A stretch of DNA of 64,000 bases from Camelus dromedarius (GCF_036321535.1 NC_087436.1:14260001-14324000); one strand, 5' to 3'. Shown: positions 1-54,214, numbered from the stretch's first letter. The notes: generated from the sequence alone by a model not told the origin. Made by a program: numbers and translations.

Positions 1-1589
1 ACGATTTTCTATACACGAAGCACCAGAGGGCAAGGAAATACTTGTACAATGCATAATAGGGAGCATTAAAAGGCCACCCGGACATTTGCCTAAATCGCCA
101 CTTTCTGGGCTGATCAAATAGCCAACCCTTGCCCTAAAAGTCAATAAATTCTGGTTTTGACAGAAAAAAAATCAGCTACTGAGAAACCTTAATCTGGGAT
201 TTTTTTGAATGTCATCCCTCAGTGGGCAATGTTTTACAGTTACAACTAGTCCATGTCTCAGCTACTTCATAAACAGCACAGAAAATTCAATCACCAAGCT
301 AAGCTAAGCTCAATAAAATCATAACTGTAATTTCAATAAAACAGAATAAATTATGGGGTGAGGTTGGTTATTATTGTTGGATTTTAAAGTACACACAGTT
401 GTCTAAAAGTTTCCTGACAACCAGCTACTGAGTACATATAGACTGGTTTATAATTTTGTTCAAAAGTTTCAAACAGATCAATTATATTGGATAAATTGAG
501 ATTTTGTATCACATTGTACATTGAGTGATTCCTCACTGCAATATGTGAAAATTATTTTTATAATTCGATGTGAAAATCTGAGATTAGTCTAGTTCAAGCT
601 TGAGGCCTAACGATCAAAAGCAGAACATAGGGGGCCCATGGGTTTTCATTTTGGCTTTAAAACTGGTTCCTAGTGAGCAAACCATTTAACCTCTAGAGGC
701 TTACTTTTCTCCTTTGCAGATTAAATATACAATGTTTTGTGTATGAACAGTCACATCTAATATATTTGCCCTTCTTTAACATGGGTTAATATTTTTAAAA
801 GCGTGTAAGAAATGAAGGCTGAAGAGAAAGACATTATATGCTTCAAATGAAATATATTTTATATTTTAAAATATACTAAGCTGAAATATATTTTAGTTGC
901 TAAAATAAGTGGACAAAGTAGAGAGACAAAAACTAGATTCACACAGTTCTTAACTGGGAAGTGGTAGGAGATACTTTTGGAACAAAAGAAGTTTCATCTT
1001 CAAAGACACAAATATTAAAATAATCTTAAAGACTAGAAAATACAAATGCTTAAAATGATTAGAGAGATCAAAGAAAGTATTCATTATGAACAAATTAGGA
1101 TATTATGAATAAGGAATAAACAAATTTGGAAAAGAACCAAATAAAGTTTATAGAAATGAAAAATATACATAATAAATCCTTTGAAAAATATAGGCAATGC
1201 CCATGGAAGGATTTAAATAAAGACTGGAGAACCAATTACTGGGAATGTTACTGAATTCCTACTGAAGTATATCTTATTGAGAGATTGCTTCAAAGTTATT
1301 GAAGGAAACGATATTGATAGATTTCTTCTGTTTCTTTTTTGCCAACTTCTGATTTTAATATTATGTTAGTAAACACTTCCAACAATAAAGAAAAGTTAAA
1401 AACCGAGTCCAAAACCTAAATAAGGTACAAGCTCCATATCTCCTACCAGACAACCACAGCTATTTGTCTTGACCTTCCTTTCCAAGTCACCAAGAATCTC
1501 ATATGTTAATGATACTAAACAGAAAATTATAAACACAGCATAGGACAGAAACATCTCTTCTTGTGCAGAAATCAAAAGTTAACTTTCCA

Positions 1590-3690
1590 TAAAAAAGCAA
1601 TCCCTTAAAATTGCATTAAAAATAAATAAAATACCTAGGAACAAACCTAACCAAGGAGATCAAAGACCTATCTGCTGAGAACTATAAAACACTGATAAAG
1701 GAAGCTGAAGGTGATTCAAAGAAATTGAAAGATATCGCATGCTCTTGGACTAGAAGAATTACTGTTGTTAAAATGGCAATATTACCCAAAGCAATTTGCA
1801 GATTTAATGTGATCCCTATCAAATTACCAATGACATTTTCCACAGAACTAGAAGACGAAATCCTAAAATTTATATTGAATCGCAAAAGACCCAGAATTGC
1901 CAAAACAATCCTGAGGGGAAAAAAAAACACAAAGCTGGAGGGATAGCCGTCCCAGACTTTAGACAATACTGCAAAGCTACAGTAACCAAAACAGCATGGG
2001 GTTGGCACAAAAACAGACATATGGATCGATGGAACAGAACAGAGAGCCCAGAAATAAAGCCACACACCTACGGTCAATTAATCTTCAACAAAGGAGGCAT
2101 GAATATACAATGGAGAAAGACAGTTGCTTTAGCAAGTGATGTCAGGAAAACTGGACAGCTGCACGTAAGAGCTGTGGCTCTTACATTACAGCACTCCCTC
2201 ACAACACACACAAAAATAAACTCAAAATGGTTTAAAGATTTAAATATAAGACATGACATGATAAAACTCCTGAAAAAGAAAACAGGCAAAATATTCTACA
2301 TAAATCGTAGCAGTATTTTCTTAGCTCAGTCTCCCAATGCAAAAGAAATAAAAGTAAAAATAAACAAATGGGACCTAATTAAATTTATAAGCTTCTGCAC
2401 AGCAAAGAAAACCATAAACAAAACAAACAGACAACACACAGAATGGGAGGAAATATTTGCAAATGATGTAACCGACTAGGGATTAATTTCCAAAATATAC
2501 AAACAGCTCATACAACTCAGTATCAGAAAAACAAAAACAAAAACAAAAAAACAATCCAATCAAAAATGGGCAAAAGATCTAAACATACATTTCTCCAAAG
2601 AAGACATGGAGATGGCCAACAGATACATGAAAAGATACTTAACATTGATAATTATTGGAGAAATGCAAATCAAAACTACAATGAGGTGTTACCTCACAAT
2701 TGTCAGAATGGCCATCATCAAAAAGTCTACAAATAATAAATGCTGGAGAGGGTGTGGAGAAAAGGGAATCCTGCTACTCTGTTGGTGGGAATGTAAACTG
2801 GTGCAGTCACTATGGAGAACAGTATGGAAGTTCCTTAAAAAAACTAAAAATAGAGTTACCAAGACCCAGCAATCTAATTTCTGGGCATTTATCTGGAAAA
2901 CATGAAAACTTTAATTGGAAAAGATACATGCACCTCAATGTTCACAGCAGCACTATTTATAATAGCCAAGTCATGGAAGCAACCTAAGTGTCCACCAACA
3001 GATGAATGGATAAAGAACATGTGGTGTGTATATGTAGACAAATACATAACGGAATATTACTCAGCCACAAAAAAGAATGAGATATTGCTATCTGCAGTAA
3101 CATGGATGGACTTAGAGATTATTACACAAGTGAAGTTAAGTCAAATAGAGAACGACAAATACTACACGATATCATTTATGTGTGGAATCTAAAAAATAAT
3201 ACAAATAAACTTATCTACAAAAAAGAAACAGAGTCACAGACATAGAAAACAAACTTACAGTTACCAAATGGGGATGTGGGGGGAGGGATAAATTAGGAGT
3301 ATAACATTAACAAATACACACCGATATATATAAAATAGATAAACAACAAAGATTTATTATTATAGCACAGGGAATTATATTCAATATCTTCTAATAACCT
3401 ATAATGGAAAAGAATCTGAAAAGGAATATATATGTATAACTGAATCACTTTGCTGTATACCTGAAACTAGCACAATACTGTAAATCAACTATGGTTCAAT
3501 AGAAAGAAAAAACATTTTCAGGGGATTAGAGAGGGTGTGCGCAAAAAGACAAACTATAGAGAGAACACAGTAATAACTTTCTTCCTTGAATTGGAACTGT
3601 GTGTTTATAAGGTACAGAAATGTTTTTGTTTATAAGGTACAGAAATGTTTTGAACAACTACCACCAAAAAATTGTAAGACAATTAAAAAC
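1590..3690 (+). mobile_element. 5'-truncated L1 (ORF2 C-terminal part and 3'UTR to about 3512) plus about 180 bp of extra 3' sequence inside the TSD
   Basis: ORF fragments [31 protein letters not shown] and CTSMFTAALFIIAKSWKQPKCP are L1 ORF2. Direct repeat CAAAAGTTAACTTTCCA at 1573-1589 and 3690-3706. Confidence 0.93.
3602..3651. repeat. Perfect 25-bp tandem duplication TGTTTATAAGGTACAGAAATGTTTT x2
   Basis: Units at 3602-3626 and 3627-3651 read directly. Confidence 0.97.
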
Positions 3691-3829
3691 AAAAGTTAAC
3701 TTTCCAAGTGGTTTGAACTTTTACTTGTAAAAGTACAGGATAAGGATACGTATAGAAAGCATTAGGGCATATACAGAGGAGGCAGAAATGAGTTGCACAT
3801 TCAAGAGAAACTGAAACTTGGAGTCTGGC

Positions 3830-4290
3830 TGTTGCGGAAGCAGCATAAGTGCTTCCATTGGGAAGCAGCAGTAATGAGGTTGACAAGGTAGGTTTAGGGC
3901 AGATTGGAGAGGGCATCTGGTACCTGCCTGGTAAAACACAAGGCCGTCTTCTTCTAAGGAAGCTGGAGCTGGGAGCTCTTCCATCTCCTTATTCTCTAGC
4001 GGGCAGGGTTTGGGTACATGACCAAGCTCAACCAGATACTCTCAAGGAAATGAAGGAAAGTATGCAGGAGCCTTTTGGAAATTATTATTTATGGGAGCTG
4101 TAGTAGCATCAAGTACCAGAGGTACCTGGCATCAGGATCCTAATTCGATTCTTCTGAAACATTATCTTGGCTTTGGTTCTTGCCTATTTCTAGAATCTCT
4201 TCTTCTGCCTTTCTGTTAGCTCTGTGGGCTATCCTATAACCTTCTAATACATTATTTTTCTGTCCATATCGGCCTCTTGTTTGCAATGTA
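3830..4290 (+). mobile_element. Ancient ERVL/MaLR-class LTR remnant
   Basis: The 3' part (cttctaatacattatttttctg...cttgtttgcaa) resembles the U5 end of old ERVL/MaLR LTRs. Boundaries approximate. Confidence 0.45.
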
Positions 4291-10650: not shown

Positions 10651-11410
10651 CTCAGCTTCCTAAATATTAGCTTTGTTCTTCTTTTTGTATGTTTAATGAC
10701 TCATTTAGAACTGAATCTCAGTATTTTTCTCTATTATGATGTATACTGTCATCTCTAGTCAAATTTTCTTTGTCCAAGAGTCTAGATATTACCAAATGAT
10801 TTAATGCTCTAAATTATCTGTTCCAGCTTCTAGTCTGTAGGCAAGGGATTTCTGCACCTTTTGGCTCTCGGCGAGAAAAAAAGACATAGAAGGAGTCACG
10901 TAAGTTATTGTAAGAAATTGTTAGGAATGCTTAGCTGAATATATGCAGAAAAATAATTTCATTCTGAAATTCGTAATTTGTATTATTGATTTCAGTAGAA
11001 GTATATCACAAATCCGGTCAAGCAAGTTACTGTTTGTTCAGGACACTTAGAGACTAGGTAAGAGACTTCCAGCAGGTGCCTGAATTTACTTATTACTCAC
11101 GCCCAGTTGTGCACAGTATGATCCTTCCTAGGCTCAGGCAGGCTGAGGACTCCTTTTCCTTCCTCTATCCAAGTTCCCTTCGCCTGAAACCTCTAGCTGA
11201 CATCTTCTTTAGGGTACAACTGGATCACTATGTTGACAAAAGTCAGTTGGGCCTTCTTGAAAATTATATGAAATATCTAAAAGAACACCTCAAGAGTCCA
11301 AGCTTATTAAGAGTTCAGCAAATAAGAAATGTAATAAATTACCTCTCAGAATTCTCCTACTGCCATTTTCATCCCCCTCACTCCCCAGGAGTTATTTCAA
11401 ATAATCTTAC

Positions 11411-11632
11411 ATGGAGTTCTAGTGACTTCAAACTCAGGTCAGCAAATGCATCTCCGAGTTGCCTTTGGGTATGCACCATCTGGAAAAGCTGGGTTGACAA
11501 TGTCTGAGCCAGTTTTAGAATATTTTCATATTTCTTCTTGTTATCTCTTAATATATCAATCTGAGCTTCAAGTTCAAGGTCCACAGTTCTTGATCCACGG
11601 CCTAGCTTCTCAGAGATAATCTGCCGAGTGCA
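11411..11632 (-). CDS. ARFIP1: Arfaptin-1 exon, start of AH/BAR domain; CTRQIISEKLGRGSRTVDLELEAQ...SLKSLELH
   Basis: Acceptor ctttcAG, donor CAT|GTAAGA. 222 nt, phase 0-0. Contains the arfaptin-family motif SRTVDLELEAQI. Confidence 0.98.
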
Positions 11633-14600
11633 CTGAAAGTGGAAAGATGTACTTTGTTTAGGAAGAAAAAAAGAACAAAAGAAAAAATAGTAATACAGCA
11701 GCCAAAGTACAAATGCTAGAGCACATGACATACACCATTTCTGGCTTCAAACAAACCAGCCCAACAAACTGAAAATTGTCAGCCCCCTTAGAAGTCCATC
11801 AGAACTCAGAAGGTAAATTTACCAGACATGTCAAATAACTATTACTAATCAGAGGAAGTTTTAAGACTTATCTAGCTAATTTATATCCTGCCAGGTGAGC
11901 TCTCTCACATAACCATCATTCAAGCTTTGTGCACAAGTATCTCAGCTGTTTTAGAGATTATTTAAAGCAACTGAGATACTTGGCATTGATTTATGAACAA
12001 CACTGGACTATTAATATAGGTATAATAAGAATACCAAAATTCCACTCTCCTATTGGTTTCAAAAGCTTTTTTCCTTTCTATCTCCCCCTTAAATAGCTGT
12101 GTATATGTGTGTGAGTAGGAAGAATGAAGGGAAGAAAGGGAGAAGAAAGAAGAAGAAGAGGTGGGGAGGGAGGGGAGATGGGGAGGGACAGAGAAAGAGA
12201 ACAGAGATTCCTGAATTATTCTTCTACTTTTGCCCAGATAGAGTAATATTAAATTATGTTACTCTTTTCTGTCCTAGAAATGATACAGGAACTTGTAATT
12301 TTTTTTAAAGTACCTAATTTCAGAGCACATGGAAATAAGTTTTCCAATAATTTTTGTTAGAAATAAAAAATTATAAGCAAATTCACTACTTAATAATACA
12401 CTTTAAGGGTAACTACATAGGGCATTAATATACTCCTCATCATTTAAAGTTAACAAAAATATTCTAAAAAGTAGTAAATAAGTATTACAGTTTTTTAAAT
12501 TTACAAACTTGCTCTTTTATCACCTCTTTCAAAGTTTTGGTTACAGAATTACTGTTTGTTGAAGAAATTAAAATAATGAACGAAATAAAAGGTGAATTTC
12601 CTCTTCCTTCCTTTAATCTGACTAAATAGTAGAAAACTATTAACAGCTTGATGGGTATAGTCTAGATGCTCCTTAAAATCTATATAATCACATATATAAT
12701 ATTTTTAAAGTAAACATGAAACTATGCTATGCTACACATAATATCCTGAGCATTTCTCGTCTAAAAACAAATCTCTTAAGACTTCTCCCCATCAATATGC
12801 ATAAGTCTATATTTATCCTTTTAATGTTAGCATATTACATGTTACCCATATTTTTTCTACTTAAGATTGAAATGGATTTCTTCACACATTCTCTATTATC
12901 ACCAATTAATGATCTTTATGAATAAACATTTTTTATAAAGGAGTTTTCTTTTAATAGAGAAATAACTACATAGAAAATGATAGGAATGGTGAGAGGCCAA
13001 ACTCACAAAAGGGAGACAAAACTATTTCTACGGAAAACATACAGACACTTCTGGGAGATGAAAATCACAACAGGAGGAAAGTTTAACTGCAGATTTTGTG
13101 ATCTTCATGAGAGAAACATCAGCAAGAAATAATATCTGAAATGGTAACAAGATAAAAGGAGATAAGCCACTCAATCTCACTTTTCATCCACACCAGGACT
13201 TTCCCTATGCAACATAATATTACCAGAGACATTTACTCTACTCGCAAGCCAAAGCATGTGGTCCCTTCCATAGCAACCCAGATATAATAGTCTGTTGAAA
13301 GTCAGGGGCCAGAACTCATTGAAGGGACTTGGTAGATTGGGCAAAACGAAAGAAACGTCTACTGTTGTCTGAATGGTCACTTTTTTCCACAGAAGTAACG
13401 GTTACAAGCAGACAGTAGGGTCAAAGGTTTAACGAGGAAATGCTTTTTGTTTCCTGGAAGCTATGGCAGTGGAAGAAGTAAGGCAACAGTGAATATGAGG
13501 CATAATAAGATAAATCTGGACACTTGAAACAAGTTTTGAAACTGAACTTACAGAGCTTGTAATCCAATATAGGTAACTAATCACTCTTAAGGAAATAAGA
13601 GTGCCACAGAGAGCCTATGTGGAGCTTTGTAAAGAAAACTGTAGTGAGAAAATACAAAATTGCTAGTCATTTCTCCACTCATTAAGGTCCCAGAGCAAGT
13701 TTCTCATATGACCACTGAAGGATAGATTTTTATTTAAGTTGCTTCCTAGTAAATACTGAAATTAAAATACAAAATTAGAGATCGGTATATATAATAAAGC
13801 AAGTTCAAAACAGAAGAGAATTAAGAATCTCAGTTCTTTACCCTTCTTCAAAATTCCTTAAAATGTAGATGACTTCCAATGAGCTGGTGGTCCTACTCAG
13901 TTTTCCATACTTATAAATTAAGAATTCATTTTGAAGCCATCAGGCCAAATAGACCAAAGTTAAAGGGGGGAAAAAGCAAAGGAAATGATTGCCCTACATG
14001 GACCTCCTACTTGGGGGAGGGCAGATAAACAGTGTACGAAACATGAATCATCATCGCGCACACCATGAATTTAAGACAGTCACTGTGTACTCTCAGTATT
14101 TAAATACCGCCAAAGCTTTATCTATAATGCAGAAAAAAAAAGAATTAAACCATTTAAGTACAAAGAAAAGAGTAATTTCATGGCAACAACTGACAGATAT
14201 TAAAAGAGTTGTTAAGAGTGAAGGATAGGGAAGAAGGGAGCATAAAGGGAAATATAAGAAACTGAACAGGAGAAATAGGTCAATCAGTAAATACATAAGG
14301 CAATAGGATAAGAAAAACAAGAATGAAAGTTTAAAAGACACTAGCTTAAAGACCACAATTATTAATTTGATAAAGGTGTGAATACTGATGGTAAATTCTT
14401 AAACATCTAAAAAAAAGCACTGAATGTTTAGGAAAGATAACAGCGCTAAATGCTGAAACTGAGATTATTCTTAAAAAATAACAGGACTTCTAAAAGTACC
14501 CTATTCTACACTAGCAAAATTCAAAGCCAAACGAAAACAATAATAAACCAGAGTTCACCATTCACAATTATTCCTGCAGACGAGAATAATTAAGAAAATG

Positions 14601-25313: not shown

Positions 25314-25525
25314 TGTAGATACTGACAGGCATATGCAGAATAGATAAACAAGATTATACTGTATAGCACAGGGAAATATATACAAGATCTTGTGGTAGCT
25401 CACAGCAAAAAAAAAATGTGACAATGAATATATGTATGTTCACGTATAACTGAAAAACTGTGCTCTACACTCGAAATTGACACAACATTGTAAAATGACT
25501 ATAACTCAATAAAAAATGTTAAAAA
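25314..25525 (+). mobile_element. Young, heavily 5'-truncated L1 3' end
   Basis: Perfect 14-bp TSD AATAGGATTGCTTT at 25300-25313 and 25526-25539. Very similar to 51056-51240. Confidence 0.93.
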
Positions 25526-25769
25526 AATAGGATTGCTTTAAATTTAATGAGTTATCTGCTTATTCTTACTATGTTGAACTTTCTGGGCAAGGAAAAAGAT
25601 AAGGTACAGTCCTTGCCTCCCTGGAGAGACAAGATACACAAACATTAATATAAAAGTTGAACTTGGTGCCAAAGTAAAGACAGTATCAGCAGCATTCAGA
25701 ACAGGGACTAAGTTCATGAGAACCGAACAGGAAAGGAGAAAGTACTGCTTGAGCTCTGGAACATAAAGC

Positions 25770-40717: not shown

Positions 40718-42884
40718 GGTAGACTCCTAAAAAAAAGGAGGTAAGAAACAGTTATAAATAACACCAAATCATAGAAGGCAAATATTCAAAAGACTATATT
40801 CATATTTATAGCACTTAAAAGCCACTTTTATAGCCCCTTTTTAAATAATTATAACATACCTATCCTTATATAATAATCATCATACTGAAATAATACAAAA
40901 TACAACTGGCTTTTAAAATTGCATTCAACTTAGATTTCTTGATCTTGCTGTAGATACCAGGGGGTAATATCCTTACCTTATAAATGGTGCAAATGACACA
41001 GAAATCAAAAATGCAAATAATGTCTGAGTATTATTAAAAACAGTTTTGACCTTGTAGATTGCCAGAAAGATTCTTGGACCTACAGACCACACTTTAAAAA
41101 ACAAAATTTAACCAGTATTTAGTGAAACTTGTTATGTGCAAGGGATTCTATTAGATTCTATAGAATATAAAAAACAAATAATGTGTGTCACTGATCTGGC
41201 GGAAGGTACCACTGATTCAGTTTGGGAGGCTGACTGTACTCTTCAGTAAGTATCTGCCTCTCTTTCTTTAGGATCCTCTAAAACCAAATTCTTTGGAATG
41301 GTTACAGATTGTATAAATCCTAGGGTCTTCCTGGGCTAGATTTCTATTTCTTGGCAATTGTAGAAATGTTCTGCTTCTCACAGAATCTCATATATACAAC
41401 ACTTCTACTTCTTATACAAACTTCTTTTTCTTTACCACGACAAATTTTATACATAATAAAGTTTCTATTTTCTGACACAAAAATGAATAGACCATCTCTA
41501 TATCTTTGTATTCCCAGGGCAACAGAATGAAGATCTAAGTAAATAAATAAATACTTTTCCTTTTAGTAAAGTCAGGGCCTTTAAGGACAGAGACAGCCCG
41601 AGCCATCTCTTTATCATTGGAAATTAGCCCAGGGTTTGGCAAACAAGAATTTCTCAATGAATGTCTACTGACTGGAAAGGATATGAGCTAAAACAAAAGT
41701 CCGATCTGTAGTTACGAAGGTGTTAAAATGACCATTATACATTTGTGCTCCACATTCACTCTCTCCCTTGTCCCACCCATGGAGCATGTGATAACACATT
41801 CATTTCTTCTCATGGGTATCATTGCAGTAAAACAAACCAAGGGGAAATATCTGAAACAGCCAAAAAAAAAGTGAATTATCAAGTACCTCAAAAATCAGTG
41901 TACTTGAATTATTTGGAAACAGTTTTGAGAAAAGACTAAAATGTCAAATTGAAATCCTAATTGGTTAAGCCAATGAAAAAAGAACTTTCAGAATAATGCA
42001 AAATTCTGCTATTATTACTTACAACATTTCCCAGAAAATTTACTTATTTCCTTGTATTCCTCAATATCTTATTTAAAAAGTCGTAGTTCAGAGTTCCTCT
42101 TACCACAAGCCTGAAACTAGTGAGGAAATTAATACAGTTAACATTCCATGTAAACCTTGAAAACTAAAAAAAGAAAAAATTTCAGACAGAAGACTTAAAA
42201 AATTCAAGAAAGGAAAACAAAAACTCCTCTGCTTTAGTCTGGATTCTGGGGAAAGAGTCTCTGAAATGAAGTTTGCATGCAGAAAACTTTCTGTGGAGTT
42301 AGTTCTCCACTAAAATGAGTGGAGACAATACTTCAAGGACACAGAGACTTTGAGACACAGAATAAAACTGCCGAGCGGTGTCGAACAGAGCAGGCGAATG
42401 GAGTACCATTCTAAACAACTGCTTATCTATCGGTTCCACTAATCGGATCGTGTATCACTCTGAGCTAATGAATATCAAAGTAACGCCACAGCATCCAAGA
42501 CTATCCCATTACCTGATTTATTTTGTGCAGAATAATGACATTCCAAGAAGAAATAAAACTGTAAAGAGGTTGAAAATTGAAAATAAGAAAAGCAATTGTT
42601 TTTTGAAAACAATTCCAATTATATTGGAAAAACAGATTAATGATGAACATATACACTGTTAATGCATTACACTACAGTGAAGTGTGAATTTGGGCCCGCA
42701 GGAAACACACCTGATCCACAGTGGGCAATCAATGTGTTAATCAGAGGTGATATTTAAGATGTATCTTATAGGATGACAGATGGGAACAGTTGAGGGATTC
42801 TAAATAGAAGGAAAAAAAGCACAGCAGAAAAAGAGTCTAGTATATTCTAGAAGCTGCAAGTAAAGCGACTTGGCTAGAACGGTG

Positions 42885-43350
42885 ATTATTCATTCATATA
42901 TTCATCGTTCAACTAATTTATTGAACTCTCTAATGCACAAGGCGTAATTTCAGACACACAGGATAGAGCAGTGAACAAAACAGACAAAACTCCCTACCCT
43001 CACAGAACTTACATCTTAGCTGGGGAAAACAAACTGATAAATACACACATCATACAGTTGTGAGTGCTAATGGGCACATGTATCTACACGTGTTCATAAA
43101 TGTGCTGTTTTAAAGAGAGTGATCAGAGAAAACCTCTGAAGAGATACAGTATTTTTGTGAGACCTGAATAAAGTGAGGGAGTGAGCCATAAAGATACCTG
43201 GGAGTACAGCATTCCAGGCAGAGGGAATAGTAAATACAAAGATGAGGAGATGGGAACATGCTCAGCTTTTCGAGGAATGCCAAGACGACCATGCAGCTTG
43301 AGAGAAGAGCCAGAGGAAAACAGAAGAAAATGTCAGAGAGGCAGCCAGTG
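42885..43350 (-). mobile_element. L2 3' fragment
   Basis: ttcattcat...tttattgaac...gcagtgaacaaaacagacaaaactccctaccctc...cattccaggcagagggaa. Confidence 0.85.
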
Positions 43351-43514
43351 GCAAGAACATGTGTGAAATGAGCAATACAAGCAAATTTCCATCTCCTTGG
43401 ATTTTAGCCTAAAACTAAGTCCTACCCATACTGCGCACCCAGTAGTTGTGACAGCACACAGGAGAAAACTAGTCTTTTTGAGTTGGAGAAGAGTTAGGCT
43501 AATAAAATTAATGG

Positions 43515-45668
43515 GAATGACACTCTCATCACTTCTATTCAACACAGTACTGGAAATCTAGCCATAGCAGTCAGAAAAGAAAAAGAAATAAAAGGGATCC
43601 AAATTGGAATGGAAGAGGTAAAAATGTCACTATATGCAGATGACATGATACTATATATGGAAAATCCTAAAGACTCCACACAAAAACTACTAGAGCTGAT
43701 AAATGAATTCAGCAAAACAGCAGGTTACAAGATTAACATACAGAATTCAGTTGCATTTCTTAACACTAACAATGAAATATCACAAAAGGAAAGTAAAAAA
43801 GAAAAAAAAAACTTTAAAAACTGCATCAAGAAACCAAATACTTAAGAATAAACCTGACTAAGGAGGTGAAAGACTTATACACTGAGAATGTAAAACATCG
43901 ATAAAGGAAATTAAAGATGATTTAAAGAAATGAAAAGCTATCCCATGCTCTTGGACTAAAAGATTTAATATTGTTAAAATGGCCATACTACCCAAAGCAA
44001 TCTACCAATTTAACGTGATCCCTATCAAATTACCCATGACATTTTTCACATAAAGAGAACAAATAATCCTAAAATTTACATGGACTCACAAAAGACTCAG
44101 AATTGCCAAAGCAATACTGAAGAAAAAGAATGAAGCTGGAGGCATAACCCACCAAGAATTCAGACAGTACTACAAAGTTACAGCAATTAAAACAGTATGG
44201 TATAGCACAAAAACACACATATGGATCAACGGATCAGAAAAGAGAGCTTAGAAATGAACCCACAGATTTATGGTCAATCTTCGACAAAGAAGGCAAGAAT
44301 ATGCAATGGAGAAAATACAGTTTCTTCAGCATGTGATGTCGGGAAAGCTGAACAGCCATGTATAAATTAATAAAGTTAGAACATTCCCTCACACTACCAC
44401 AAAAATAAACCCAAAATGGCTTAAAGACTTAAACATGAGACAGGACATCACAAATCTCCTAGAAGAGAACACAGGCAAAATATTCTGACATAAGTTGTAG
44501 CAACATTTTCCTAGGCCAGTCTACAAAGGCAATAGAAATAAAAGCAAAAATAAACAAATGGCACCTAATTAAACATAGGCTTTTGCACAGCAAAGGAAAC
44601 CATAAACAAAACAAAAAGACAACCTACGGACTGGGAGAAAATATTTGCAAATGACAAGGGTTTAACTTTCAGAATATACAAACAGCTCATACAACTCAGT
44701 ATCAAAAAACCAAACAATCCAATCACAAAATGGGCAGAAGATCTAAACAGACATTTCTCCACAGAAGACATACAGATGGCCAACAGGCACATGAAAAGAT
44801 GCACAGTATTGCTAATTATCAGAGAAATACAAATCAAAACTACAATAAAGTATCACCTCATACTGGTCAGAATGTCCATCATTAAAATGTCCACCATAAA
44901 TGCTGGAGAGGGTATGGAGAAAAAGGAACACTCCTACACTGTTAGTGGGAATGTAAATTGGTGTAGCCACTATGGAAAACAGTATAGAGATTCCTTAAAA
45001 AACTAAAAATAGACTTACCATATGACCCAGTAACCCCACTCCTGGACATGTATCTCCAATTAGAAAAGATACATGCACTGTCAATGTTTACAGCAACACT
45101 ATTTACAATAGCCAAGACATGGAAGCAACCTGAATGTCCACTGACAGATGACTGGATAAAGAAGATGTGATAAACACACACACACAATGGAATACTACTC
45201 AGCCATAAAAAGAACAAAATAATGCCATTTGCAGCAACATAGATGGACCTAGAGATTATCATACTAAGTGAAGTAAGTCAGAGAAAAATAAATATCATGA
45301 TATCACTTATATGTGGAATCTAAAAAAAAGACACAAATGAACTTATTTATAAAACAGAAACAGACTCACAGATACAGAAAACAAACTATGGTTACCAAAG
45401 GAGAAAGGGTGGGGCAGCAAGGGATAAACTGGGAGTTTGGAATTAGCAGATACAAACTAGTATATACAGAATAGATGAACAATAAGGCCCTACTGTATAG
45501 CACAGGGAACTATATTCAATATCTTATAATAACCTATAATGAAAAAAATATGAAAAAGACCGTGTATATATATGTGTGTAACTGAATCACTACGCTGTAT
45601 CCTAGAAACTAACACAACATTGTAAACCAATTATACTTCAATTAAAAAAAAAGAAAAAAAGAAGAAGC
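43515..45668 (+). mobile_element. 5'-truncated L1 (RT domain to poly(A))
   Basis: ORF piece [35 protein letters not shown] contains the RT YADD motif. 3'UTR and A tail at about 45644-45668. Possible decayed TSD (aatgggaatg / aaagggaatg). Confidence 0.95.
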
Positions 45669-45689
45669 AATAAAGGGAATGGAGGAATC

Positions 45690-48259
45690 CTAACAAGGAA
45701 AGATCCAGAAAGAGGATCCTCACACTCTTTTTACTCTTATCTAACCCCTAAATGCACCTGCACAGAACAGACTCCACTGAATGCAGCTAATGACAAAAGA
45801 TCTGAATTGAGACCAGAGCTGCCATCCAACAAACAATATCTCTAATGTAAGTCCAGCCAAGAAAATTATCAGCCAAAACAAAGGAAGCAATATTCTTTCG
45901 AGAAAAATAACAGAATCTAAGACTTCCACATCTCAAGTTCAAAATGCAATCTAAAATTACCAGACATATGATGAACCAAGAAGATAAAACATATTTCCAA
46001 GGGAAAAGAAAATCCATCTAATCTGAGATGAACCAGAGATTGGAAGAAACAGATATGGATTTTAAAAACACCTTCAATTAAGTAAAGCAAAATATTTTTA
46101 ATGAATCAAATCTCAGTGAAAAAATAGAAAATCTCAGCACAGAAAAAGAAACAGTAAAAATGAGGCAAATGGACTCTAGAACTGAAAACTATAATTTTTC
46201 AAAGAAAAAAAATCACTGGATGGACTTAGCCAGAAAAAGATAACAGGGTAAAAAGTAAAACTAAATTAAATCAATATAAATTATCCAAGCTAAAGAACAA
46301 AGAGAAAAGAACACTGAAGAAAAAGAGCTTCAGAGACCTATAAGCCAATATTAACTATTCCAATTTATGTGTAATTAAAATACCAGAAGAAGGAGAGAGA
46401 AAAATTGTACAGAAAATGTATTTTAAGAATTAATGGCCAAACTTTTCCCAAACTTGATGAAGGACAAAAATTTATAGATTTAAGATGCTTAATGAACATG
46501 ATGCAGAATAAACACCAAATCCATGCCAAGGGACATCACACAGTCAAATTATTTAAAACCGAAGATAAAGAGCTAACTTCTAGAGCAGCAAGAGAAAAAC
46601 AATATATTACTATCAGGAAACGACAATCCAACTAATGGCTGATTTCTTATCAGATACTATAAAGGCCAGAAGAGAGTGGAACATTGCAGAAAAAAGAAGA
46701 AAACCATCTACCCAGCATTCCATATCCAGTGAAAATACCTTTGAAGAACTAGAAAAGAATATTAAGGGTATTTTCAGATAAAACTAAAAGAACTCATCAC
46801 CAGCAGACCTGTACCCCAAGAAATGCTAAAGGAAGTTCTTCAGGCTGAAAGGAAATAAAACCAGATAGGAACATGGATATTCAGAAAAGAATGAGAAGGA
46901 AATAAAATATTAACTACTTGGGTAAATGCAAAAGACCACTCTTTTTCTTTTTGCCTCTTCCTCAGTTTCTTTATAAACCACACAACTGCTTGAAGCAAAT
47001 GTTATAACATCATTTCTGTGGTTTATAATGTATCTAAATGTAATATATATAAAATACCTATATCAAAGAACAAGGTGGGAGGGTAAGGATATATGGCCTT
47101 AAAAGGTTGCTAAATTTTTGTCTTAAGTGCAGCAGTGTGTTAGTAATTGTCAGTGAAACATGAAGTTTAAGATATATACTATAACTGTTACAGCAACCAC
47201 TAAAAGTATAATGCAAAGTAAAGCTAAAAAATTATCAGGAAAATGAATATGGCATTCTTTAACATATTCAAATAATAAGAAGGCAGTAAAAGAAGAGGAG
47301 AAGGAAAACATAGAAAAGTAAAAAACAAAGAAACTAAAGGGGTGGATACAAAATCAACCATATCAATAACTGCATTAAATACTATTGGAGTAAGCATTTC
47401 AGTTAAAAGGCAGAGACAGTCAGAATGTATTTTTTTTAATGACCATACTATATGCCATATAAGTGAGATGCACTTTAATAACAAAGATATAAATAGACTG
47501 AAAATAAATGGATTAAGAAAGGTAAACTATGCAAAGAGCAGCTGTAAGAACGTCGGCATGGCTTTATTAATACCTGATGAAAGTTTTTAATAAACTATTA
47601 CCAGAGATAATTACCAGGGACGTTTCATAATGATAAAATGATCAATTCATCAGGAATATGTAACAATCATAAATGTGTATGTTGGTCCCAATAACAGAGC
47701 TTCAAAACAAATGAAACAAACACTTACAGAATTAAAAGGAGAAATAGAGAAGTCCACATTCATACTTGGAGACTTTGCCACAAAGCTCAGTGCAATTGAA
47801 AGAACAACTAGACAAAGAAAACTGGCAGAGACACAGAAGTTCTGAACCCTATCAGCCACTTTCGTCTGATATTTACAGAACAATAAACTTAATAATGGCA
47901 GAATACACATTACTTTCATATGAACATGACATGTTTAGCAAAACAGATCATATCATGGGCTCAACAAAACTCAATAAATTTTAAAAAATGCAACCACAGA
48001 GTATGTTATCTGACCACAGTGGAATTTAATTACAATTAATCACAAGAAGATATGCAGAACCTCCTCTCACCCCATTTAGAAACTGAACAACACATCTAAA
48101 TAATTAATGGAAAAAAGAAAAAAATCACTAGGAAGAAAATATTTTGAACTGAATGATAATGAAAATACAATGTATCGATATTTGTGGGATGCACCCAAAA
48201 TGCTTAGAAAAGAAACTTATAACTTTAAATGCTTGTATTCAAATAGAAGAAAGATCTTA
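45690..48259 (+). mobile_element. Old L1 host element (degraded ORF1 and ORF2 endonuclease region); continues at 51262-51312 and 53696-54210
   Basis: ORF1-like SRAAREKQYIT and EN-like ISITALNTIGVSISVKRQR and HDMFSKTDHIMG. The sequence reads continuously when the two TSD-bounded inserts are removed. Confidence 0.85.
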
Positions 48260-51251
48260 GAGAAGCAAAATGGCGGAGTAGAAGGATGCTTGTAGCTCAC
48301 CCTCTCCCACAAATACACACCAAAACTCACATCTATGGACATACTCAGCCAACCAAGAGCACCTGCCAAACTCCGACAGAACATCGCCCTCTTCAAAACA
48401 CAAAGATGCCAAAAATCTGGTAGGAGAAAAGGAAAAAAGAAAGAAGAAAAAGCAAAACAGTGCAGGACCAATCCTGCAGGGAGGGAGCGGCAAAGGAGGA
48501 CTGGCGCGCGTTCACTGGGTCTCCCCTCTCCAATGGAGAGGCCAGCGGGACGGAGGGGGAGGCTTCGAGGCTCAGATCTGCCTCGAGCACCCCTTGACCG
48601 ACAGAACTGAGTTAAATGGGCACAAAGGGTCCCCACAACACCCAGCCCAAGATGTGAGCTGACAGCTGGGGGCCAGGACAGGCTGCCCAAGTTGGGCAGA
48701 GGACTGGGGCAGCTGCACTGAGGCAGCCCTGGGCAACTGCAGGGTGCTGCGCACCATGGCTGGGAGGGGATATGGAGCAGAACCACCTCGGTCCCCTATA
48801 AACTGCGAAAAAAGCAAAGCAACATGGCTGCTGTGCCCTGGGGGAAGGGGCGCCATAGCCTTTGTCTCCTCAGACCTGCGCCGCCATGACTGGCGCTTCT
48901 TGAGAGAAGAGAGGTGGGGCGCAGCCACAGCCGCCATCTCCTCCTATGCGCAGTGCCCAGGCAGGGGAGGGGCCAAGACCTGAATCCACACCCAGGGGCT
49001 CCGCAACCTCCTAGGCAGGACTGAGACTTGTTTACAGCCTGAGGCAGATAGGATCTTTCTGCGCTGGCACCTCAGAGAACTCACACCACCAAGACAAACA
49101 AGGTGCTGAGATTCGGTAAGGAGCAGGAGCAGGGCTGTTTCGCGGTCTTCCCCGAGGCCTCCTCAGAGCACCGACCCCGAGGAACATAGCACCTGACCAC
49201 GATGCTGGGAGGGGACGAGATCTGCCCACCTGCCTCGCCAGAGCTTAGCATCTGACTGCAGCATCGGGAGGGGGAGTGACCCACCCGCCCACCAGGTAAG
49301 AGCTCAGCACCTGACCCAGTGTTGGGAGGGGGCACGATCTGCTAGCCGACAGCCACTGGGAGCAGCACAGACGAGGGCGCCAACAGAGGGCCTCTGGAAA
49401 CAGCAAGCTGAGTTCGCAAAACAGGGTGAAGACACAAAGACCTCTTGAAAAAATCATTAAGAGCACACCGTCTCCAGAACTAGATAACTGATACTCCTTA
49501 AGTCGTAGTGCCAGAGAGATATGAGCAATAAGAAGCAGAGGAACCACTCCCAATTAAAAGATCAAGAGAAATCCCCTAACAGCACAATCAAGGAAATAGA
49601 CATTGATGGCCTACTAGATCAAGATTTCAAAAAAGGAGTAATCAAAGTACTGAAGGAACTAAAAGAGTTTTGAGATATAAAATATGTCAAAAATGAAACA
49701 GAAGCTATAAAGAAGAACCAAGTAGAATTAGTAAACTCATTTGCTGAGATGAGAGCTGACCTAAAAGCTATACAAAGCAGACTAGATAATGCAGAGGAAC
49801 GAATAAGTGACCTAGAAGACAGGACAACAGAAAGCACCTAATCAGAACAGCTGAGAGAAAAACAAATGAAAAACAATGAAAACAATATAAGGGACCTATG
49901 GGATAATATAAAGCGTGCCAATCTATGCATAATAGGGGTTCCAGAAAGGGAAGAAAGAACAAAGGGGATTGAAAAGGTATTGGAAGAAATCATGAATGAA
50001 AACTTCCCAAACCTAAAGGAATCAGAAATCCACTACAGGAGGCTCAGAGGGTCCCAAACAGGAAGAACTCAAATACACCCACACTAAGACATATCATAAT
50101 CAAGATGGCCAGAGTCAAGGATAAAGAAATGATTCCAAAGGCAGCAAGAGAAAAGCAAAGAATGAGTTACAAGGGAACCCCAATAAGGTTTTCAGCTGAT
50201 TTTTCTACACAAACACTACAGGCCAGAAGGGAGTGGCAAGATATATTCAAAGTCCTGAATGAAAAAAAGATGCAGCCTAGGATACTCTATCCAGCAAGGC
50301 TATCCTTTAGAATAGAAGGAGAGACAAAAAAACTTCACAGACAAGCAAAAACTAAAAGAGTTTAGCAACACTAAACCCATGCTAAAAGAAATATTGACAG
50401 GTCTACTCTAAGTAGAAAAGCAGCAGGATGCTACAAAAATGAGAAACTCATAACTGGAAAGGAGATAACTGCCATGAATTACAAAAAGAATAAAGACAAA
50501 ATTGTAAAAGAAGACATCTAAATCATTAAGAGTGAGAGAGGGAAGCAAGGAAAGCCACTGTTGAAAACAGTATGGAGATTCCTCAAAAGACTAGGAATAG
50601 ACTTACCATATGACCCAGGAATCCCGCTCCTGGGCATATATCCAGAAGGAACCCTACTGCAAAAAGACACCTGCACCCCAATGTTCACAGCAGCACTATT
50701 TACAATATTCAAGACATGGAAACAGCCTATATGTCCATCAACAGATGACTGAATAAAGAAGCTGTGGTATATTTATACGATGGAATACTATTCAACCACA
50801 AAAACCGACAACATAACACCATTTGCCGCAACATGAATGTTCCTGCAGAATGTCATTCTAAGTGAAGTAAGCCAGAAAGAGAAAGAAAAATACCATATGA
50901 GATTGCTTATATGAGGCATCTAGAAAAAAAAAAACAAAAAAACAAACAAAAAAACAAATACAAAACAGAAACAGACTCATAGACATAGAATACAAACTTG
51001 TGGTTGCCAAGCGGGCAGGGGGTGGTAAGGGACAGACTGGGATTTTAAAATGAAGAATAGATAAACAAGATTATACTGTAGAGCACAGGGAAATATATAC
51101 AAGATCTTGTGGTAGCTCATAGCGAAAAAAAAAAATGTGACAATGAATATATATATGTTCATGTATAACTGAAAAATTGTGCTCTACATTAGAATTTGAC
51201 ACAACATTGTAAAACGACTATTATTCAATAAAAAAAGTAAAAAAAAAAAAA
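48260..51251 (+). mobile_element. Young 3-kb L1 derivative: 5'UTR, ORF1, short spacer, ORF2 extreme C-terminus, 3'UTR and poly(A)
   Basis: 5' start ...AAAATGGCGGAGTAGAAGG; ORF1 ATG at 49521 to TAA at 50411 (disrupted); junction to the ORF2 end at about 50553; poly(A) about 51228-51254; TSD AAAGATCTTA at 48250-48259 and 51252-51261. Confidence 0.93.
49521..50411 (+). pseudogene. Disrupted L1 ORF1
   Basis: Fragments NIRDLWDNIKRANLCIIGVPE and KAAREKQRMSYKGTPIRFSADFSTQTLQARREWQDIFKVL lie in different frames. Confidence 0.9.
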
Positions 51252-51308
51252 AAAGATCTTAAACCGACAATCTAAGATTGCACCCTAAGAAAACAGAAAA
51301 CAAGCAAA

Positions 51309-52004
51309 TTAATCAGCTGAGAGCCTTATGGGGGTTCCCTTGTAACTTACTCTTTGCTTTTCTCTTGCTGCCTTTAGAATCATTTCTTTATCCTTGACTC
51401 TGGCCATCTTGATTATGATATGTCTTGGTGTGGGTCTATTTGGGTTCTTCCTGTTTGGGACCCTCTGAGCTTCCTGTACTTGGATATCTGATTCCTTCTT
51501 TAAGTTTGGGAAGTTTTCAGTCATGATTTCTTCAAAAACCTTTTCAATCCCCTTTGATCTTTCTTCTCCTTCTGGGACCCCTATTATGCGAAGATTGGGA
51601 CGCTTTATATTATCCCATAGATCCCTTATGCTATTTTCATTATTTTTTATTTGCTTCTCTTGTAGTTCTTCTGAATGGGTGCTTTCTATTGCCCTGTCTT
51701 CTAGATCACTAATTCGTTCCTCTGCATTATCTAGTCGGCTTTGCACAGCTATTCGATCATTCCTCATCTCTGTCAATGAGTTTACCCATTCTATTTGGCT
51801 CTTCTTTATAGCTTCAATTTCATTTTTGACATATTTTATATCTCTAAACACTATCTCTTTTAATTCCTTCAGCAATTCGATCACTCCTTTTTTGAAATCT
51901 TGGTCTAGTACGCTATCGATGTCTATTTTGTTGATCTTTCTTTCAGGGGATTTCTCTTGTTCTTTTAATTGGGAAAGGTTTTTATGCTTCTTCATCTTGC
52001 TCAT
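51309..52004 (-). CDS. Open, C-terminally truncated L1 ORF1p (231 aa); expression unknown
   Basis: Uninterrupted ORF with coiled coil, RRPNLRIIGVPE-type motif (KRPNLRIIGVPEGEE) and TPRHIIIK. The stop codon comes from the TSD. Confidence 0.6.
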   Translation of the reverse strand: MSKMKKHKNLSQLKEQEKSPERKINKIDIDSVLDQDFKKGVIELLKELKEIVFRDIKYVKNEIEAIKKSQIEWVNSLTEMRNDRIAVQSRLDNAEERISDLEDRAIESTHSEELQEKQIKNNENSIRDLWDNIKRPNLRIIGVPEGEERSKGIEKVFEEIMTENFPNLKKESDIQVQEAQRVPNRKNPNRPTPRHIIIKMARVKDKEMILKAAREKQRVSYKGTPIRLSAD

Positions 52005-53695
52005 ACCTCTTTGGCACTGTGGTTTATGGAGTATCAGTTGTTTATTTTGGTCCTTAAGGATTTTATCTATCTGATGCCTATTTAGGAATAGAACTTAGGA
52101 AAAAAAAAGAAAAAAAATAAGAGAGAGAGAGAAAGAATTTTAAAAGAAGGGAGAAAGAGGGTTTGAAAACAGTGTATAATGAATAATAGAAGAGTGAGTT
52201 GAAGCAGAATATTAATCGGGTTGAGACGTCCTTTTGAAACCTTTACAAAAAAAGGGGGGGGAGATGAATAGATGTATTTGAAAACTGTGTCTAATCAATA
52301 GCAGGACATCAAAACCCAAGAGAAATAGAAATGAATTAAGAAGTAAAGATTAAGAGAGTAATAGAAAATAGAACAGGTAAAAACAGATTTAAAAAAAAGG
52401 GGGGGGGGTTGTTGGTGTTCTCCTGGAGTCTGTGTGCTTTTAATGTGAAGTCTTTCTGTCTTCGTCCTGTTTTGGAAGCTCAGCTTGCTGTTTTCAGAGG
52501 CCCTCCGTTGGCGCCCTCTTCTGTGCTGCTCCCAGCACCTGTCGGCAAGCAGATCGCGCCTCCTCCTAACACTGGGTCAGGTGCAGCTCTCTGCTGTGGG
52601 CGGGCGGGTCGCTGCCCCTCCGGATGCCGCAGTCAGATGTTGCAGACTGGCCGGGTAGGAGGGCGGGTCGTGCCCCCTCTCAGCACCTCGGTCAGGGGCT
52701 GTGTTCCTGCCCGAAAGGCGGGGTGCTGCTCTCACTCTACCTGCGCCGCCGCCGTAGCTCCGCTGCTCTGTGCGGCTGCATGCTCCGCCCTGGTCGGTGC
52801 TCCGCCCTGGTGGCGCTCCGCGGGTGCGCTCGGGGAAGACCGAGGGACAGCCCTGTCCCTGCTCCGAGTCAAAACCCAGCTCCTTGTTTGTCTTTGTGGA
52901 GCAAGTTCTCTGAGGGACCAGGACGGAAGGATCCTATCTGCCCCGGGCTGCAGGCCAGTCTCAGTCTGGCCTTTGAGGATGCTAAGCCCTTCGGTGTGGA
53001 TGCAGGTTTCGCCCCCGCCCCCGCCTGAGTGCTCACCGCCGAGGATATGGCGGCTGTGCCTGAGCCCCGCCTCTCTTCCCCCGAAAACTTTCCGCGGGTT
53101 TTCAGAGATGGGGGTGTGCACCCTTCCCCCGAGAGCACATCAACCTTGCTGTTTTATGGAGGGCCCAGGTTGTTCTGCCCTGTGCACCCACAGCCATGGC
53201 ACGCAGCCCCTTGCATTCCCCCGGGGCTGCCTCCGTGCAGCCACTTCTGTCCTCCACCTGGCTTGTGCAGCCTGGCCCTGCCCGCGGCTGCCGGCCCGCG
53301 TCTCAGGCTGGGTGTCGGGGGGACGCTCTGTGCCCGTTTAACTTAGTTCTGTTAGTCAAGGGCTGCTCTGTACAGATCCGAGCCTCGGAGGCTCCCCCTC
53401 CGTCCCGCTGGCCTCTCAGTTGGAGAGGGGAGACCCAGCGAGCGAGCGCCAGTCCTCCTTTGCCGCTCCCTCCCCGCGGGACCTGTCCCGCGCTGCTTTG
53501 CCTTTTGTTTTTTCTTTTTTCCTTTTCTCCTACCAGATTTTTGGCGTCTTTATCTTTTGAAGAGGGCGATGTTCTGTCGGAGTTCCACAGGTGCTCTGGT
53601 TGGCTGAGTGGGTCTGTAGATGTGGGTCTTGGTGTATTTGTGGGAGAGCGTGACCTGCGAGCGTCCTTCTACTCCGCCATCTTCTCCCGGGTGTC
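51313..53695 (-). mobile_element. Young L1 5' portion (complete 5'UTR and first 231 codons of ORF1), no 3' end or poly(A), bounded by a TSD
   Basis: Minus-strand start GACACCCGGGAGAAGATGGCGGAGTAGAAGG; CpG-rich. Perfect 17-bp TSD GAAAACAAGCAAATTAA at 51296-51312 and 53696-53712. Confidence 0.95.
52500..53695 (-). promoter_or_regulatory. CpG-island-like L1 5'UTR (putative internal Pol II promoter)
   Basis: Dense CpG and a YY1-type AAGATGGCGG motif at the 5' end; an internal promoter here is established for L1. Confidence 0.65.
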
Positions 53696-54214
53696 GAAAA
53701 CAAGCAAATTAAACTAAAAGTAAGCTATAGGAAGGAAATAATAATAAAGACCAAAGATTACAGAAATAGCAGAAAAACTGGCCTGCATATTTCAAAAAGG
53801 TTAAGCTCATAAAAAAACAAAAGTAGATGAATTACTGCAGCATAAAAGGACAAGATAAATGACAGCTAAACACAATGCACAATATGGCCTAGATCACAAA
53901 GTAGGAAAAAACTAGCTGTAAAGGTTATTACTGGAACAACTGGATTAAATAACAGTATTGTACCAATTTCCTAAATACATTTTGTAATTCTGATAAATGT
54001 GCTGAGGTTATATAAGACAAAGTCCTTGTTCTTAGGTATAAAAGGACCTGATGTCTGCAAATCACTCTCAAATGGTTCAAAAAAGAAGAAACTATACATA
54101 GAGAGAAAATGTTAAAGTAAATGGGACAGAACAATGATTGGTGAATCTGGGTAAAGAGATTAAGTTGTCTGTATGAAACTTTATAAAAATTTAAAGTTTT
54201 AAAAATAAAAACAC

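Follow-up and report, generated by a model that had tools for sequence, protein, structure and literature searches.

A young L1 copy with a complete 5' end, a missing 3' part and no poly(A) lies between exact target-site duplications (TSDs) in the 64,000-nucleotide stretch of Camelus dromedarius DNA analyzed here (the window), and we conclude, with a probability of about 0.8, that it was primed internally on its RNA at insertion. That figure covers two forms of internal priming jointly. In one, to which we give an even chance, the reciprocal, A-rich end of the cut target primed internally and the T-rich end was never extended; the other is plain internal priming, considered below. Genuine and well formed, the feature falls within a known class, tailless L1 copies being uncommon but described in other mammals. 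An earlier note on this DNA had proposed internal priming, and the proposal is now well supported by the true TSD, the complete 5' end, a 2-nt overlap at a U-rich RNA site and a target that, read along the element, would prime very poorly on poly(A).

The copy occupies positions 51313-53695 on the minus strand (2,383 nt), with exact 17-bp repeats on both sides in the assembly sequence, and corresponds to the front third of a family about 7.1 kb long, about 4.7 kb being missing. From its 5' end it runs through a 7-nt leader, the AAGATGG start and a 5' UTR of about 1.7 kb into ORF1. The leader, GACACCC (53689-53695, minus strand), followed by GGGAGAAGATGG, is of the type found on full-length siblings and resembles the leaders of 26 of them, yet it is unique in the genome; like the 26 siblings, the window copy begins ahead of the conserved GGAGAAGATGG region, in its case by 7 nt. 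Extra 5' bases are a mark of full-length L1 RNA copies (PMC2912911), and an RNA intermediate is therefore likely. The 5' UTR (52005-53688, minus strand) is GC and CpG rich, and by likeness to other L1s it is a putative internal promoter region. ORF1 is open from 52004, and its truncated frame (51309-52004, minus strand) holds 231 open codons of about 300, the latter number coming from a sibling's frame, before a stop codon, TAA, that arises inside the TSD. Profile matches identify the L1 trimerization and RNA-binding domains (PF02994, E = 2e-17, 63.6 bits, cut-off 22.4; PF17489, E = 3e-6, 28 bits, cut-off 22.2). The last bases before the break are ...CTCTCAGCTGA. The L1 with a complete 5' end and neither 3' end nor poly(A) that the earlier note described is thus confirmed, the leader and conserved start being present and an A-tract absent; its placing of the break in ORF1 also stands, although the position is late, after codon 231, rather than in the middle.

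The repeated 17-mer, GAAAACAAGCAAATTAA, is found at 51296-51312 and 53696-53712 (plus strand), the sole two matches in the window with up to 2 mismatches allowed, as expected from the earlier description of a perfect 17-bp TSD. The chance mean is 0.11 matches, and none of 100 shuffles gave two. The final AA of the left copy (TT in the L1 sense) is common to the L1 sequence expected next, and the minus strand of the right copy ends in ...GCTTGTTTTC, a T-rich end joined to the 5' end of the L1. Because the target shares TT with the continuation of the relatives, the TSD can be read as 15, 16 or 17 bp long.

The L1 copy lies within a plus-strand host sequence, the fossil of an ancient L1 ORF2. 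This host is split into a left piece (47534-48259; 31% amino acid identity to a young ORF2, E = 6e-17, many stops), a middle piece that includes the left TSD (51257-51312) and a right piece that resumes at the TSD (53696-53790). Aligned singly to an old homologous copy, L067, the host pieces fall at 1342-1448, 1451-1510 and 1492-1572 and are colinear. The middle and right pieces overlap on L067 by the length of the TSD, and hence, with L067 as an indirect substitute for the empty site, the alignments indicate that the 17-mer is a true duplication and that target loss is not visible. Nothing useful aligned to the host pieces in stretches 1-4000 and 42001-45700 of the window, and no second copy of the locus appeared among 16 matches to the right flank. 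In a sequencing-run index, 20 of the 24 listed runs (10 studies, three organism codes) contained 0.76-0.81 of 21 sampled left-junction words, a share compatible with the filled allele, given the variable poly(A) nearby, and with the empty allele alike. The region 47534-53790 as a whole consists of three nested layers, the plus-strand fossil and two later insertions, whose target sites in the fossil are 34 nt apart.

The other insertion (48260-51251, plus strand) is an ORF2-less, half-L1-like element with a 5' UTR, ORF1, a 3' end, poly(A) and its own TSD, AAAGATCTTA, at 48250-48259 and 51252-51261. In it the post-ORF1 region passes straight into the last part of ORF2 and the 3' UTR. This internal junction has 545 genome matches at 1 mismatch or fewer (control, 1), and 17 of the 28 listed C1 matches lie 330-400 nt from an ORF1 motif; since the junction recurs so often, we regard the element as a member of a non-autonomous half-L1 (HAL1-like) family. 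The word HAL1 is absent from the main text of a Camelus repeat survey (PMC8605555). Together the neighbor and the L1 copy make up an inverted repeat, each arm about 2 kb long, with 77-86% identity. We rejected this "sister copy" as source or comparator of the L1 copy because the two are only 77-85% alike and it belongs to an ORF2-less family. The earlier reading of the neighbor's TTTTT as a sign of pairing with the target's AA accordingly used the wrong comparator: the true relatives read TTTCTCT, and the overlap is TT. A short 5'-truncated 3'-end copy at 25333-25527 (plus strand) is 92% like the tail of the neighbor.

Those relatives belong to a young family, and the L1 copy is about 1% from the nearest of them. 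Its last 388 nt are one base off 28 other copies (among 40 scored of 1,833 candidates), and over the last 700 nt it shows 7-18 differences (median, 9) from 29 relatives, which differ among themselves by a median of 5. These distances suggest, very roughly, an age of 2-4 million years, the lower figure following from a rate of 2.5e-8 per five-year generation (PMC8605555). One full-length young sibling, L034 with L088 (G000:C6:28064700-28071930), is 7.1 kb long with ORF2 frames and a tail, sits at a canonical TT/AAAT target and has a 3' transduction of about 90 nt with a second A-tract before its TSD. For comparisons of 5' ends the sibling set is 26, with L042, L045 and L051 of the 29 left out because the exact anchor is absent. 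Relative to the window copy, the close relatives L020, L021, L025, L027 and L029 show 5' UTR deletions, truncation or apparent inversion.

All 29 close relatives carry on as L1 beyond the break point, 27 beginning with TTT and 2 with CTT. The target in the element sense is TTAATTTG, and its overlap with their continuation is the 2 nt TT; the RNA site at the break, UUUCUCUA, is U-rich. TT starts at 3.3% of ORF1 positions and at 4.6% of those in the sibling's 3' 5.3 kb, and better primer matches than this 2-nt overlap exist elsewhere in the L1 RNA.

The earlier note called for a genome search for other copies that end at the same place. The last 21 nt of the copy occur at 1,300 exact genome places, 14 of which are followed by TT and a non-T base: the window copy itself, 12 that carry on as L1, and L081, whose break comes 8 nt later. 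A second junction pattern, which misses about half of possible junctions, including the window's own copy, gave 14 matches, with L081 again, 6 that continue as L1 and 6 with shifted family letters; among those checked (one lay outside) there was no further junction. No other copy ending at the same ORF1 base was thus seen among the 1,300 places with the two patterns, the second about half sensitive. We rejected a non-autonomous family with a fixed ORF1 end on the same evidence.

L081, together with L087 (G000:C37:45102400-45104160), is a conventional twin-priming L1 with a tailed, antisense 3' arm. Its inverted ORF1 arm of 147 nt ends at TT(C)CTCTA, where 7 of 8 bases match, which is the TTTCTCTA site; the gap between its arms is 3.2 kb, its TSD is 18-21 nt, and its nick is TTTCT/AC. 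Second priming can thus take place at the U-rich ORF1 site, even with the first arm 3.2 kb away. L081 is a precedent for use of this site and not a hotspot, the search having been aimed at the site without a control site. The host of L081 is likewise an old L1 ORF2 fossil, and the insertion lies close to the homologous position.

To compare the two target ends, nicks were scored by the Meyer scheme against TTTT/A, lower scores being nearer; sibling nick positions are best-of-window estimates, with both ends known only for L034. Whichever of the three TSD readings is used, the 3'-junction end scores 2.0; the 5'-junction end (TTTTC/TG) scores 1.5 in the 17-bp reading and 1.0 if the C is assigned to the leader. 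The target is T-rich at the L1 5' junction, a polarity reversed relative to all 26 siblings. Read in its own orientation, the element has no endonuclease site better than 2.0 within 7-22 nt upstream, whereas each of the 26 siblings has one at 1.0 or less; A minus T over the 17 upstream bases is -9, more T-rich than every sibling (-6 to +10); and the first 10 target bases in the element sense hold 2 A, compared to 3-10. Of the last 10 bases of the opposite-strand end, at the 5' junction, 6 are T, and the terminal base is C, the best-tolerated terminal mismatch for a primer (PMC4014453). By the snap-velcro rules given in that paper, GCTTGTTTTC-3', but not AGCAAATTAA-3', is predicted to be able to prime on poly(A). 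Because AGCAAATTAA-3' is a poor poly(A) primer and the nick there scores 2.0, a tail-primed insertion in the L1's own orientation is unlikely, which in turn weighs against a later deletion.

The 5'-junction nick is itself a weak, non-canonical endonuclease site. It lacks the T/A step preferred by the L1 endonuclease (PMC8565326), and it is not among the sites TTTT/A, TTTT/G and TTTC/A given in PMC12016303. The earlier note had likened the left end of the TSD, ca|GAAAA, to an endonuclease nick; the other strand is T-rich there, but the consensus T/A step is missing, with a score of 1.5 against 2.0 at the other end. In the host fossil, moreover, 172 of 1,074 positions (16%) equal the 5'-junction end as poly(A) primer and 221 of 1,074 (21%) score 1.5 or better, so that the polarity may reflect host composition.

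The form of internal priming that begins at the reciprocal end would run as follows. A break staggered by 15-17 nt with 3' overhangs, as the TSD suggests, would have been made in the old A-rich L1 fossil, the cutter probably being L1 ORF2p. The T-rich end, 5'-...GCTTGTTTTC-3', of the kind that normally primes on poly(A), would have stayed unextended or been trimmed flush. The reciprocal end, 5'-...GCAAATTAA-3', would have paired by two bases with a rare U-rich spot late in ORF1 of a full-length L1 RNA, and reverse transcriptase would have copied 2,383 nt up to the RNA 5' end, after which the cDNA end would have been joined to the T-rich end, with no visible overlap. Such a course of events would correspond to twin priming reduced to its second half, the first arm having zero length. 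We infer the identity of the cutter, the order of the nicks and any contact with the poly(A) tail from the product, which alone cannot tell which nick came first.

Twin priming had been favored in the earlier note, and the comparison of ends supports it modestly, through the T-rich end at the 5' junction and the use of the ORF1 site by L081; against it stand the lack of a non-inverted arm or of a single extra T and the weak nick. No poly(T) lies between the TSD and the leader at this locus, where the TSD abuts the leader with 0 extra T. This zero first arm counts against the reciprocal-end form, because the loci of Meyer 2010, which were selected for it, keep 14-39 T. Secondary priming, too, usually adjoins the end of the first cDNA (PMC11702581), which would predict a first arm of about 4.7 kb and likewise counts against this form.

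Plain internal priming, starting from a first nick or from a staggered break of non-L1 origin, is a possible but clearly less favored account, in which the TTAA end would have been free by chance, the T-richness of the other end would also be chance, and there would be no link to twin priming. It is helped by the non-canonical character of both ends (scores of 2.0 and 1.0-1.5) and by an A-rich host in which T-rich minus-strand ends are common (16-21%). The 15-bp TSD reading also gives a plus-strand nick, AAATT/AA, with a TT/AA core, and internal priming reportedly does not always require the L1 endonuclease (PMC5402677, citing Srikanta 2009). Published tailless targets, however, are A-rich in the element sense, unlike the 2 A in 10 bases seen here (3-10 in 26 siblings), and a stagger of 15-17 bp is the typical signature of ORF2p (PMC11702581, PMC2912911). 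The reciprocal-end form and plain internal priming leave identical products, and the twin-priming refinement is plausible but unprovable from one product.

An improbable origin is a later loss of the 3' 4.7 kb from a normal full-length insertion on the minus strand, possibly through a tail-to-tail near-palindrome with the neighbor 34 nt from the TSD. The neighbor's 3' end is about 85% like that of the young family and would have faced the L1 inverted, the surviving ORF1 parts are still an inverted repeat, and non-canonical insertions can stem from subsequent rearrangement (PMC12350158). Such a deletion would nevertheless have had to stop exactly at the edge of the TSD, without leaving one A of the tail and with the TT match arising by chance (3-5%), and the own-orientation target is worse, both as poly(A) primer and as endonuclease site, than that of any of the 26 siblings. 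Very unlikely is a template that was already a shortened RNA, through premature polyadenylation or cleavage, with a short tail hidden in the target's AA. Although the 15-bp TSD reading sets AA directly after the TT of the L1, neither AATAAA nor ATTAAA occurs in the final 120 nt, a test of 12 variant hexamers placed the nearest ones 76-80 nt upstream, no second copy was seen ending at this base among the 1,300, and Noll 2015 (PMC5322556) found no truncated-RNA intermediates for tailless 5S and U2 copies. That the assembly wrongly omitted the 3' part of a full-length L1 is scarcely credible even in a region of nested repeats, given a 2.3-Gb assembly in 171 contigs, private sequence in the copy (7 or more differences in 700 bases from every one of the 29 relatives), a 34-mer and a leader that are each unique in the genome, a colinear host fossil and an overlap at the join of only 2 nt.

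The reciprocal-end form of internal priming invites a broader and distinctly tentative idea, that the copy is a fossil of "reciprocal-end-only" retrotransposition. ORF2p would cut both strands before cDNA synthesis, the T-rich end would fail, and the A-rich end alone would prime at a U-rich RNA site and be extended as far as the RNA 5' end. In that case a sizable fraction of 5'-complete tailless L1s would be zero-arm products of twin priming whose orientation has been recorded wrongly. If this were true, second-strand cleavage would not depend on prior first-strand synthesis. Our literature search, conducted outside subscription papers, among which is Srikanta 2009, found no paper stating this idea. 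The timing of the second nick is listed as an unresolved step of L1 integration (PMC11702581), and it would be informed if many 5'-complete tailless L1s were to show a T-rich 5'-junction end together with U-rich RNA at the 3' junction.

The window consists mostly of introns of an arfaptin gene on the minus strand, whose first coding exon spans 40726-40625 and in which 11378-11746 holds an exon with the Arfaptin domain (about 11.4-11.6 kb; PF06456, E = 8e-21). By its sequence, the gene is probably ARFIP1. The L1 copy is 10.6 kb upstream of the start codon and first coding exon, on the same strand, and probably lies co-oriented within the first intron. It retains its whole CpG-rich 5' UTR and 231 open ORF1 codons upstream of the gene. 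As a single locus it is a curiosity; it shows that a young L1 family outside the primates, in a camelid-type genome, can also give rise to a class that is known mostly from primates.

Among the known systems, endonuclease-independent insertions, with features as given for Alu (PMC5402677), resemble the copy in their 3' truncation, missing tail and lack of a canonical site. They have no TSD, are often 5' truncated and may delete target sequence, whereas the copy has an exact TSD and an intact target, which places it outside that class. Classical twin priming (Ostertag and Kazazian 2001, as cited; PMC2912911, PMC11702581) shares with the copy a discrete TSD and overlap at the reciprocal junction (2-5 bp in PMC2912911); PMC11702581 gives TSDs of 12-18 bp and an overlap of at least 2 bp in 71% of reciprocal junctions. 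The poly(A)-primed arm and inversion junction of classical twin priming are both absent here.

Also comparable are the 39 twin-priming loci of Meyer 2010 (PMC2837659), in which the first arm is just 14-39 nt of tail. Like the copy, they carry sense L1 without a 3' tail and with overlap at the 3' junction; their TSDs are 7-20 bp, an endonuclease-like site lies on the opposite strand at the 5' junction, and 2 of the 39 are heavily 3' truncated, mapping near the L1 start. They differ in having 14-39 T and a near-canonical nick, with none full length at the 5' end, compared to a zero arm (0 extra T), a weak nick and a complete 5' end with leader in the copy.

A further group is that of tailless retropseudogenes and internally primed L1 and Alu insertions (Noll 2015, PMC5322556; Srikanta 2009, as cited in PMC5402677 and PMC2837659), which are 5' complete and 3' truncated without oligo(A) and have TSDs of 8-35 nt and short complementarity at the 3' junction. 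The copy agrees with the definition of Noll 2015 in its complete 5' end, its truncation of at least 10 nt without oligo(A), its TSD within 8-35 nt and its target-RNA complementarity, which is short (2 nt, TT) with a chance of 3-5%. Priming in that class tends to occur at A-rich RNA, with a target consensus of TT/WAAAAWW, a tendency and not a screening filter; the copy instead has TTAATTTG and a U-rich UUUCUCUA site, with the opposite polarity. A survey of human polymorphic insertions reports 1,901 3'-truncated cases among 5,523 non-canonical ones (PMC12350158). Under relaxed screening, Noll 2015 counted 90 3'-truncated human L1s flanked by TSDs against 708 full-length ones, and for that reason the structure of the camel copy appears less unusual than was first held.
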